Assembly (NCBI GenBank): GCA_029762535.1
Contig: JARVGK010000013.1
Coordinates: 1 to 38,948 of the forward strand
Reading direction: 5' to 3'
Length of the DNA: 38,948 nt
Source: Thermoplasmatota archaeon
GTDB lineage: Archaea > Thermoplasmatota > Penumbrarchaeia > Penumbrarchaeales > Penumbrarchaeaceae
In this document: piece by piece, positions 15,635 to 38,948 of the stretch
Numbering within the stretch: the stretch's first letter is position 1
Layout of the letters: each line of letters opens with the position of its first letter
Made by a program: the position numbers and the translations under genes
Notes under the pieces: model-generated
What the model was told of the DNA's origin: nothing
The model's database searches: none
Seen by the model: the letters and a program-made list of their open reading frames with translations, nothing else

Positions 15635-15820
15635 GACAACCCCGCGACGATGAGCAAAATTTGATATAGTATCCGCTTCCTATAAAATGCGGGATGTATA
15701 GGGTGTAAGTCCCTATCTTTGCCGTACCTTATCCAGGTACCCCAAAAGTAACCTTTCGTTGGGCCTCCCGTCAGGCCTTCGCCTGTACATCCCACCCCTA
15801 TTAAGGAAGGGAGTGAAAGA

Positions 15821-16765
15821 ATGGATGTCGAGGAGAAGGCCAGGGCCACCCTGGTGAACAGCCTGGGTCTGAAAGGGAGCGAGAGGGCCCTCATACTCTG
15901 CGACATAGGCAGCATCGGGATAGGTGAGGTGTTCTACAAGGCGGCCGTCAGGATGACACGGGACGCCTACATGATGGTGATGCCGAAGGGGAAGCATCAC
16001 GGGGCCGAGCCGCCTCCTCCGGTCACGAGCATGATGATGGACAGCGACGTGATCATCGCACCCACGACCTTTTCACTGACCTATACGAATGCGGCCCGGG
16101 CCTCGCTTGCTGCGGGATCCCGGATCGCCACGATGCCCGGGATCACAAAAGAAATGCTTGAAAGAGGGGGTTTCGAGGCGGATTACTCGAAGATCGCCAG
16201 AAGCATACGAAGGTTCGGCAGGATGTTCTCAACCAGCAAGAGGATCAGGATAACGTCGAAAGAGGGAACGGACCTTCTGCTCCTCATCAAGGGAAGGGAG
16301 TGGATAATGGGAGATAACGGGCTTTGCCTCAAGAGGGGCTCGATAACGAACCTACCCGCAGGGGAGGTTTTCATAGCCCCTGTGGAGAACTCGGCCCGGG
16401 GAACGCTCGTCGTGGACGGGGTATTCTCTCAGGGGCTGGAAACGCCTTTGACGATCCACATCAAAGACGGGGTCATCCAGAGTGTGGACGGGATAAATGA
16501 CGTATCGCAGCTCTTCAGGGGTAAGAAGTGCTCTAGGGTACTTTCGGAGATAGGGATAGGAATGAACCCCCATTCCATGATAATCGGGAACATTCTCGAG
16601 GACCAGAAGGCCCTTGGAACGGTACATATAGGGTTCGGGGACAATTCCACCTTCGGGGGCCGGGTCATATGCGATATGCACAACGATGGGATGCTGCTCC
16701 ATCCCACCTTGGACATTGGCGGTGTCAAGGTCATAGAGGACGGTAAGTTCGTCCTTGATCTGTGA
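15821..16765 (+). CDS. M29-like (thermophilic metalloprotease/aminopeptidase) family protein
   Basis: HGAEPP, TMPGIT, GTDL, NLPAGEVFIAP, EIGIGMNP, KALGTVHIGFGDN and HNDG motifs. Confidence 0.85.
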   Translation: MDVEEKARATLVNSLGLKGSERALILCDIGSIGIGEVFYKAAVRMTRDAYMMVMPKGKHHGAEPPPPVTSMMMDSDVIIAPTTFSLTYTNAARASLAAGSRIATMPGITKEMLERGGFEADYSKIARSIRRFGRMFSTSKRIRITSKEGTDLLLLIKGREWIMGDNGLCLKRGSITNLPAGEVFIAPVENSARGTLVVDGVFSQGLETPLTIHIKDGVIQSVDGINDVSQLFRGKKCSRVLSEIGIGMNPHSMIIGNILEDQKALGTVHIGFGDNSTFGGRVICDMHNDGMLLHPTLDIGGVKVIEDGKFVLDL

Positions 16766-37422: not shown

Positions 37423-38421
37423 TCATACCTTTGGTGTAAGCGTGGTCTTCCAGAGCAGGCGGTTCATCGCAGCGAAGTAGAGCATCATAAGGACCATGAT
37501 AGCAAAGGCAGGGAGGATCCCTCCGATCGATGGGGCAATTGCGGCTATGAGCGCGAAAGTGGATGCGACCTCCATCAGCGCCATGGTTCGAAGGCATTTT
37601 CCATGGTCATATTCCCTGTCCTTCATCAAATTGAGATCGATCAAAAGCATTAGCCCCGCGAATATCAAAATTGGAATGAAATCCCACCATCGGGCATTCT
37701 GGAATATTAGGGCGGAGATCAGCGCCGCTATCGATATCAGTTTGATAAGGGCGGACATGGCCCTCGCAGGTATGGAGGCTTTGAATTTGGAACCTTTGAC
37801 ATGAACTCCAAGCCTGCCAAGTAGCGAAGCTTCGGACATACAGATATCCTTCAGGTCCCCTTCTATCATTATCTGGTAGATTATCTGCATGACAAGATAG
37901 AATGTCAAGGAGACAACGGTAAAGAGGAGGAGGGCAGGGTCGAATGCACCTCCGGATCCCAAATAGGAGAAAGGAAATAGCAGTGAGTGTGCAATGGCGA
38001 TCGGCAGGAATTTCGCCCCCATTCGCTTTCCGAATATGTTGTAGACGAAACCCATCGCGGTAAGGGTGAGGAGGATGCATAAAGCTAGCGGATCGAAATT
38101 CGAGATGAACGCTCCATACACGAAGGATAGAATGATCAGAGATAGAGTGACCCACCTTGCTGTTTTCGGATGGATGGATCCTATTTGAAGGGGGTGATGG
38201 GATTTATGGGGGTCATCCCTGTCGAATCCTTGAATGTAATCCTCAACGGAATTGTGGCCGTAACCCGCGTTGTGATACAGCCATCCGAAAATGAGAAAGA
38301 GTAATACATTCATATTTAGTATCCCGCCGCACGCGAGTGCGGATCCCGATACGCAAATGGACATCTCGAGTGGGCTGGTGTGGCTTCTAAAGAGTTGCAG
38401 CCAGTCACGGGGAGTTGCCAT
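37423..38421 (-). CDS. UbiA prenyltransferase family protein
   Basis: WLQLFR N-terminus, Asp-rich NSVEDYIQGFDRDDPHKSHHPL loop, YN...KR, second motif EGDLKD and about 8-9 TMs. Confidence 0.85.
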   Translation of the reverse strand: MATPRDWLQLFRSHTSPLEMSICVSGSALACGGILNMNVLLFLIFGWLYHNAGYGHNSVEDYIQGFDRDDPHKSHHPLQIGSIHPKTARWVTLSLIILSFVYGAFISNFDPLALCILLTLTAMGFVYNIFGKRMGAKFLPIAIAHSLLFPFSYLGSGGAFDPALLLFTVVSLTFYLVMQIIYQIMIEGDLKDICMSEASLLGRLGVHVKGSKFKASIPARAMSALIKLISIAALISALIFQNARWWDFIPILIFAGLMLLIDLNLMKDREYDHGKCLRTMALMEVASTFALIAAIAPSIGGILPAFAIMVLMMLYFAAMNRLLWKTTLTPKV

Positions 38422-38489
38422 ATGTTTCGGTTATCGGATGAATTATTATCTATATCCCATTTGCTGAAGGAACGAGATCGATATTGATC

Positions 38490-38948
38490 GAGTAGGCCCG
38501 CCCGGACCGATTAAAAATCCTTCGGATTTTCAAAGTCTATGTACTCTAATTAAATACTCGGGCGGATCCCACTCTATAAATTCACATTAATGATGATCGA
38601 GTGGGCCCGCCCGGATCCTTGAAAAATTGCTAAGGCAATTTTCCATACCAACAATGAGAATATGCTTGAAACGTGCGGGCTCACTCTTCTTAGTAAGGAA
38701 TAAATGTTACGAGTGGGCCCGCCCGGACCGATTAAAAATCCTTCGGATTTTCAAAGTCAACGTACTCTAATCAAATACTCGGGCGGATCCCACTCAATAA
38801 ATACACACGAATGATAATCGAGTGGGCCCGCCCGGATCCTTGAAAAATTGCTGACCCAATTTTCCATACCAACAATGAGAATATGCTTGAAACGTGCGGG
38901 CTCACTCTTCTTAGTAAGGAATAAATGTTACGAGTGGGCCCGCCCGGA
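38490..38948. repeat. Array of alternating palindromic units (A 85 nt, B 88 nt) with 24-nt linkers; 221-bp period; truncated by the window end
   Basis: Core GAGT(G/A)GGCCCGCCCGGA at 38490, 38599, 38711, 38820 and 38932 (spacing 109/112/109/112). Each complete unit ends in an imperfect inverted copy of the core. Confidence 0.95.

Follow-up and report, generated by a model that had tools for sequence, protein, structure and literature searches.

Tandem tRNA-tail repeats with antisense arms at a contig end of a Thermoplasmatota archaeon: a genome-wide arrangement and a tentative model of gene-less DNA cassettes

The locus described here raises the question of why a short sequence that reads as the 3' end of a tRNA recurs at regular intervals at the edge of an archaeal contig, each time accompanied by an antisense copy of itself. 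The window, by which we mean the whole stretch of DNA that was analysed (positions 1 to 38,948; 38,948 nucleotides), has its right edge at an assembly gap, base 38948 being followed by 78 N, and no tRNA gene is visible within it or directly past that base. We therefore ask from which gene the repeats derive, how widespread the arrangement is, and by what process it may have arisen.

The window array and its likely anchor gene

On the minus strand, positions 38932-38948 spell T, CCGGG, CGGGCCC, A and CTC, as the initial annotation had read them, and these 17 bases correspond to T60, the 3' strand of the T-stem, the 3' strand of the acceptor stem, the discriminator A and three bases of trailer. 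The repeated core is 18 nt long and consists of the exact 14-nt 3' end (T60-A73) of both tRNA-Val(CAC) and tRNA-Pro(CGG) of this genome, followed by a 4-nt trailer. Copies are present at 38931, 38819, 38710 and 38598, with a further one at 38489 that carries one substitution, and the core-to-core spacing of 112, 109, 112 and 109 gives the unit order B-A-B-A. The proposal that the core is a tRNA 3' end and the array a reiteration of tRNA tails is thus borne out, and the objection that no tRNA of the genome might end in this way is answered by the two genes that do. The 14-nt tRNA part is found nine times in the 2.96-Mb genome, against 0.04 expected, and all nine copies belong to the window array, to tRNA-Pro(CGG) and its array (contig C44), or to tRNA-Val(CAC) (contig C58).

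Read along the minus strand, the array begins with core 1 (38931..38948), which is composed of the 14-nt end of the anchor tRNA (T60 to the discriminator A73, 38935-38948) and the 4-nt unit trailer. It opens unit B1 (112 bp, 38837..38948), in which core and trailer are followed by a 23-nt AT-rich loop, an antisense arm (38893..38907) complementary to tail and trailer with two mismatches, a small hairpin, and a hairpin of the GAAAAT type, H2 (38842..38865), which lies 5 nt ahead of the next core in the type 1 orientation. In the H2 of B1 the wobble, as scored in the copy of B on C44, is a G.T on the tRNA-sense strand, and there are 1-3 differences between B1 and the other B copies. Unit A1 (109 bp, 38728..38836) has the same sequence as the A unit behind tRNA-Pro(CGG) and 78% identity to the units behind Val(GAC) and Val(TAC); its antisense arm (38780..38795) has a bulge opposite tRNA position 69, and its H2 (38734..38752) has a C-GAA-G triloop. 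Units B2 (112 bp, 38616..38727; arm 38672-38686) and A2 (109 bp, 38507..38615; arm 38559-38574), both also on the minus strand, complete the set, so that every window unit contains an imperfect antisense copy beginning 23 nt past its core. The diverged units are the distal ones: A1 equals its C44 copy, whereas A2 differs from A1 at 8 sites and is read as an older, distal copy for that reason. The array closes with a displaced, decaying tail copy (38489..38506, minus strand), whose one substituted base is also present in an independent Logan contig. A gene for a UbiA-family prenyltransferase (37423..38421, minus strand) lies 3' of the array as ordinary flank; no recombinase ORF was found beside the array, and an Rfam search with it gave chance matches only. 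That the host is an archaeon is borne out by Dph2 and an archaeosortase among its genes.

Both genes that end in the core, tRNA-Pro(CGG) at C44:50-125 and tRNA-Val(CAC) at C58:115494-115568, have a B unit directly behind them. A tRNA is almost certainly located directly upstream of the window array on the minus strand, and this array would likewise, across the contig break, stand behind a tRNA gene. Although either gene ends in the core, the anchor is likely to be tRNA-Val(CAC), with core 1 probably the real 3' end of that tRNA and the gene body on contig C58. The end of C58 and the end of the window share an exact 77-nt overlap, no other overlap length being found between contig ends in the assembly; the variant of unit B on C58 is that of the window and differs from the one on C44; and an orthologue of the MFS gene of the window adjoins tRNA-Val(CAC) in two relatives of one genus, in opposite orientation in G012, while three further close MFS orthologues have no tRNA-Val(CAC) neighbour. 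These three observations favour Val(CAC) over tRNA-Pro(TGG), which might be held in the gap and anchor the array from there. The latter possibility, which is the less likely one, drew on the absence of tRNA-Pro(TGG) from the assembly and on a DUF362-like gene past the gap, next to whose orthologue a tRNA-Pro is found in 14 relatives (8 CGG, 6 TGG). No tRNA was found near the UbiA gene in relatives. The left flank of the gap overlaps C58, the tRNA-Val(CAC) contig, and the right flank is a tRNA-Pro locus by synteny; hence the scaffold join over the 78 N (C7:38949-39026 of this genome, G000) is probably a mis-join via the common repeat. Further along the same contig, at C7:40497-41320, an ORF with tandem Lys/Pro-rich repeats is interrupted by an assembly gap.

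Units behind tRNA genes, their antisense arms and their strand signals

The arrangement seen in the window recurs throughout the genome. About 31 of the 41 tRNA genes of this genome have their own 3' part in antisense within ~70 nt, a downstream direct copy, or both, and a strict test for the direct copy leaves 20 of the 41. Units were found at 36 of 69 sampled loci in genomes of the same family; five genomes further removed had direct copies at 2, 5, 1, 0 and 0 of 7 loci. No unit accompanies tRNA-Phe at any of ten loci in relatives (L186, L192, L201, L206, L211, L224, L228, L233, L239 and L240) or here (C33). The units are placed directly 3' of the tRNA gene and in the same orientation (at C44, C18, C34 and others), and the general unit of ~80-220 bp runs through the tail, a unit-specific trailer, an AT-rich loop, the antisense arm and one to three hairpins to the next tail. 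The duplicated part of the tRNA is 14 nt (18 with the trailer) and reaches up to ~20 nt in the T-loop class; its start falls at T60/59 in 68 of 107 cases and at T-loop positions 55/56 in 28 of 107, which gives two narrow classes.

Two further kinds of hairpin were observed in this genome. Clusters of H2-like hairpins are present at sites without a tRNA gene (C25:48540-48830, C31:5480-5700 and 15780-15880, C61:1-300 and C16:320-390), in regions of lower GC content with many accessory genes. In addition, a hairpin with a CCC loop, common to both tRNA-Pro loci here, is located upstream of tRNA-Pro (L001:2039-2135, the end of L357, and L162, L167, L171 and L174), and in relatives it comes after a duplicate of the tRNA 5' end through the D arm, which looks like a mirror case of the downstream units.

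The antisense arm is the feature that a plain att duplication leaves unexplained, as had been pointed out from the first reading of the locus. In a set of 14 relatives of the window units, 94.3% of the cells between the arm and tail plus trailer are paired and 7 of 14 pairs are compensatory, values that none of 500 shuffles reached and that compare with 29-43% in slid-register controls; it should be noted that the units are kin, so that the arm statistics and the counts overstate independence. The arm column opposite G69 is unpaired in most rows of this set; the unpaired position is a mismatch or a bulge in the window units and a ~20-nt insert in other families. The arm fits the trailer of its own unit better than that of the next unit by 60 to 9, with 22 ties. 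It follows that the unit begins at the tail, and this preference is expected if tail, trailer and arm form one site. Furthermore, the arm ranks its own tRNA in the top 5% at 12 of 40 loci here and 32 of 63 in relatives, compared with 2 of 37 and 5 of 59, respectively, for a control region. In genome G003, one unit family is found at the Pro, Val and Ile genes, its arm altered to suit each. Units are thus very probably common to different tRNA genes and re-tailored to them.

Whether the arm acts as RNA or as DNA bears on the suggestion, made in the initial annotation, that RNase Z or RNase P might release unit RNAs from a co-transcript. The units do fold on the tRNA strand (z -2.6 to -5.6), but the mismatches in the arm stem are strand-neutral (13 G.T and 14 A.C), and mismatch statistics do not favour the tRNA-sense strand as RNA. 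The H2 hairpin gives two patterns: in type 1 units it lies 5-10 nt ahead of the next tail and its wobbles are G.T (7 to 0), whereas in type 2 units it lies 30-48 nt ahead and its wobbles are A.C (G.T against A.C, 0 to 9). The interiors of type 2 units match those of type 1 on the opposite strand (80% over 46 nt), i.e., the module is inverted, and an inner module that occurs in both orientations relative to tRNA transcription would suit a role as DNA better. Of 60 triloop hairpins counted on both strands, 16 have C-GNA-G, a triloop of high stability in DNA (PMC13037366), versus 7% genome-wide; this excess is weak, as the copies are related, and GNRA/UNCG loops are almost absent from the unit hairpins. 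Passive co-transcription of the units with the tRNA is likely and would be secondary, and incidental RNA products would be compatible with all of these signals.

Signs of movement, candidate enzymes and known systems

Several loci carry signs that units may have moved. With 96% identity to the Val(TAC) unit, the first Val(GAC) unit retains an arm of the Val(TAC) type, although the unit has tails of the host type on both sides. In the Ser(TGA) and Trp arrays, one unit stands behind a hybrid tail made of five host bases and then a Leu/Gly-like end; the Leu/Gly-like portion suits that unit's own arm, and the following tail is again of the host type. No whole tRNA end resembling the hybrid tails was found in the 24 genomes searched. 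Judged from their sequence, the hybrid tails, which are two cases only, both mutated, would fit one in-register crossover near positions 60-64. At a tRNA-Met(CAT) locus on contig C29, probably an Ile2 gene, a segment that encodes a His-rich P-type ATPase and also has a small ORF (L356:1171-3597 and 572-808) lies between tail copies, an arrangement that is possibly a cargo-bearing cassette; a HicB-like gene is located past the last tail copy. Pattern scans of metagenome and viral sequence returned no free or viral unit copy, and a loose scan of a genome contig collection gave apparently unrelated bacterial matches.

The array had also been interpreted as a possible landing site for tRNA-targeting integrases. 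This part found no support: no such integrase is present at the window locus, and across relatives none of the candidate enzymes tracks the units. Searches of the genome, which is 93% complete, gave as candidates one protein of the XerA/IntI-like kind, one serine recombinase, one Cas1, one IS110 transposase and a fragment of an integrase, and they gave no match to a Y1 transposase or to a reverse transcriptase. The best integrase candidate falls short of the cut-offs for integron integrases and XerA (187/265 and 185/220 bits, respectively) and does not adjoin an array. The serine recombinase was rejected as the unit enzyme, being fixed behind tRNA-Cys in 10 of 10 loci and not found in the unit-rich genome G003. 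This protein of ~287 aa, with Resolvase and Recombinase domains, is encoded 3' of tRNA-Cys at all ten family loci (L158:1117-2152 and L281-L290); the small ORF before it looks AbrB-like, no distal tail copy was found in the stretch read, and the gene looks sedentary. A tyrosine recombinase of 242 aa was likewise rejected: it adjoins arrays in 2 of 7 genomes and was found in neither G000 nor G003. Tyrosine recombinases of ~240 aa, present in 7 of 23 relatives, are encoded directly after unit arrays in two of them (L297:5231-5956 and L298:2662-3378) and seem to be without the usual N-terminal domain. The 320-aa integrases behind tRNA-Thr were set aside as well, since the stretch read there has neither an arm nor a copy of the tail. 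Finally, an integrase fragment lies behind tRNA-Trp (C53:7706-8098), and contig C102 opens (1-830) with an ORF of HTH-like type, followed by one copy of the Trp tail and by three units; the assembly has probably divided one small integrated element between the two contigs.

Arrays of comparable layout have been described in Escherichia coli, where they are known as tRNA-linked repeats (TLRs; RtT/rttR, Rfam RF00391; Egan & Landy 1978 and Rudd 1999, via PMC8144298). One to five units of 100-180 bp stand behind a gene there, directly 3' of a tRNA or rRNA gene and in the same orientation; 22 units at ten loci end in 18-19 bp of the upstream gene, and they have no known function (PMC8144298). We checked the sequence of the tyrV and lys units of MG1655 and found an arm that is antisense to either the tail or the T arm, and a C-GAA-G or C-GTA-G hairpin shortly ahead of the tail copy. 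Thus, in both cases a unit behind a tRNA gene has a 3' end equal to that of the gene, an antisense arm and inner hairpins. In contrast to the E. coli units, the archaeal duplicate is mostly 14 nt, without encoded CCA, rather than 18-19, and the archaeal units comprise many families, accompany about three quarters of the tRNA genes and carry the inner module in both orientations. The RF00391 model matches the E. coli loci and none of five archaeal loci; the archaeal arrays are TLR-like in layout and outside the RtT sequence family. In a literature search that covered few subscription papers, TLRs were described only for E. coli, and no archaeal account was met.

Folded recombination sites offer a second comparison. 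As in the attP(+) of CTX phage with XerCD (PMC4246890) and in integron attC, two inverted target copies can fold with a central unpaired position and a variable loop, and tandem arrays build up at one target, with an enzyme that acts in trans there and is proposed to do so here. Unlike those systems, the target is a tRNA tail rather than dif or attI, replication or packaging genes are missing, and recombination of a folded single strand is suggested here indirectly, by signs in the sequence. The integron attC cores GTTRRRY and RYYYAAC were not found at the base of the hairpin, where the stem consists of the tRNA tail and its complement. Integrative elements that target tRNA genes, such as those of the SSV1 and pNOB8 types, leave attL and attR duplications that fall into T-loop and 3'-end classes. 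The units resemble them in that the boundaries are in or beside the T-loop, and would do so too in a restored tRNA 3' end and a displaced tail downstream, if they entered by a single crossover; they differ in being ~110 bp long, in having no integrase gene in the unit and an antisense arm instead, and in that most copies retain only T60 of the 7-nt T-loop. True integrase elements at the Trp, Thr and Lys genes of the family have no such antisense arm. The casposons of Aciduliprofundum boonei (PMC5137440) share with the units a tRNA-Pro 3' end as target, repeats of 14-15 bp and possible tandem arrays, whereas the units are without terminal inverted repeats and without a casposase or PolB gene, and their duplication is placed differently.

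Possible origins of the arrays and their significance

The best single model, which we put forward tentatively and rate at somewhat less than an even chance, is that gene-less DNA cassettes of ~110 bp, which recombine via a folded DNA site, have become stacked at the 3' end of a tRNA gene, probably tRNA-Val(CAC). The mobile form would be a small circle or single-stranded DNA, in which tail and trailer would pair with the arm to form a recombination site comparable to the folded attP of CTX phage or to integron attC. A single crossover in the T-loop or the 3' strand of the T-stem (~positions 55-64), performed by an enzyme supplied in trans, would leave the tail of the cassette on the tRNA and displace the old tail downstream. 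Repeated entry could then, along with unequal crossing-over and with conversion among loci whose tails are the same, produce B-A-B-A with the oldest copy outermost. The model is suggested by the strand-neutral stem mismatches, the two orientations of the inner module and the hybrid tails of two arrays. The covariation of the arm, its preference for the trailer of its own unit, the families found at different tRNA genes, the two start classes, the ATPase segment and, weakly, the triloops also count in its favour. It is weakened by the lack of an enzyme and of a free or viral copy, by the small number and mutated state of the hybrid tails, by the processing of the E. coli counterparts into RNAs (PMC8144298), and by the fact that homologous recombination via inner modules together with template switching could give sharing and covariation without an enzyme.

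This last point amounts to an explanation of its own, in which old integration scars were kept and spread by homologous recombination between tail copies and common interiors, and template switching during replication of the quasi-palindrome rewrote the arm to match the local tail. The near-identical B-A-B blocks at Val(CAC) and Pro(CGG), two genes with the same tail, are in its favour and strand-neutral mismatches fit it, as does the failure to find an enzyme, but it leaves unexplained the unpaired arm position kept as a mismatch in some families and as a ~20-nt insert in others, the fixed distance between H2 and core, the two sharp boundary classes and the same anatomy in E. coli; we consider it unlikely. 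We are equally doubtful that the units serve the host as small RNAs or as switches of maturation. In that case they would be made in one transcript with the tRNA and excised at the tail copies like RtT and RrB of E. coli, and the arm would close the unit RNA or, by competing with the acceptor stem and the T stem, adjust how the tRNA matures. The units do share the strand of the tRNA, downstream of its promoter, and fold well on it, in a model precursor the arm would be able to capture the tRNA tail, and TLR RNAs of E. coli have been detected and are processed near the repeat (PMC8144298). Against this, there is no G.U excess among the arm-stem mismatches, the H2 wobble of type 2 units is on the other strand, the interiors are many and unrelated, and the number of units varies per locus; moreover, the arm pairing extends beyond the discriminator and, judging from known RNase Z substrates, should mask the RNase Z site.

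The remaining explanations appear less probable still. Spread through RNA, with units released at the discriminators, circularised, reverse-transcribed by the enzyme of another element and reinserted behind a tRNA tail, would account for unit-specific sequence that begins directly after A73, for an arm that would join two RNA ends, and for the host-type tails on either side of the first Val(GAC) unit; we regard it as improbable, as no reverse transcriptase was matched, the hybrid tails imply that a cassette carries its own tail, and the inner module is invertible. A tRNA intron at 59/60 in the T-loop, spliced by the archaeal splicing endonuclease, is scarcely credible: with the arm holding the first tail, the 5' half of the tRNA could, in modelled pairings, pair with the second, but a strict bulge-helix-bulge at 59/60 is found in 2 of 55 first units and the tRNA is complete without splicing. 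The same anatomy is moreover found in E. coli, which is not known to have such an endonuclease. Nearly as improbable are miniature casposons or a proto-CRISPR array, in which a Cas1-like integrase would produce a 14-bp target duplication with each insertion. The 14-bp repeat recalls the casposase of A. boonei, which targets a tRNA-Pro 3' end with a 15-bp duplication; that duplication, however, overlaps the tRNA by just 5 bp (PMC5137440), and the hybrid tails contradict pure target duplication. This explanation is largely refuted by the absent terminal repeats (terminal inverted repeats of 0-1 bp in 90 of 106 units, with a maximum of 4), and the single Cas1 match of the genome is on a different contig.

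In summary, the present analysis adds to the description of such arrays a likely anchor gene for this one, a probable mis-join, hybrid junctions, an inverted module and a direct check of the E. coli TLRs. The TLRs have been without known function since 1978, and the archaeal set offers features absent from E. coli: a large number of families, covariation, a module that can be inverted, and hybrid junctions from which a crossover can be placed. That E. coli and an archaeal lineage, between which no sequence homology is detectable, have this anatomy in common down to the antisense arm speaks for a mechanism common to both and not for a peculiarity of enterobacteria. It is possible, although we hold this wider view with less confidence than the cassette model for the array itself, that the E. 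coli TLRs and the archaeal arrays are one class of gene-less mobile cassettes across both domains, which would enter tRNA genes via a folded tail-plus-antisense DNA site and a trans-acting recombinase, retarget by a change of the arm and at times bracket cargo genes. Should such a recombinase be identified, base pairing would determine its target.
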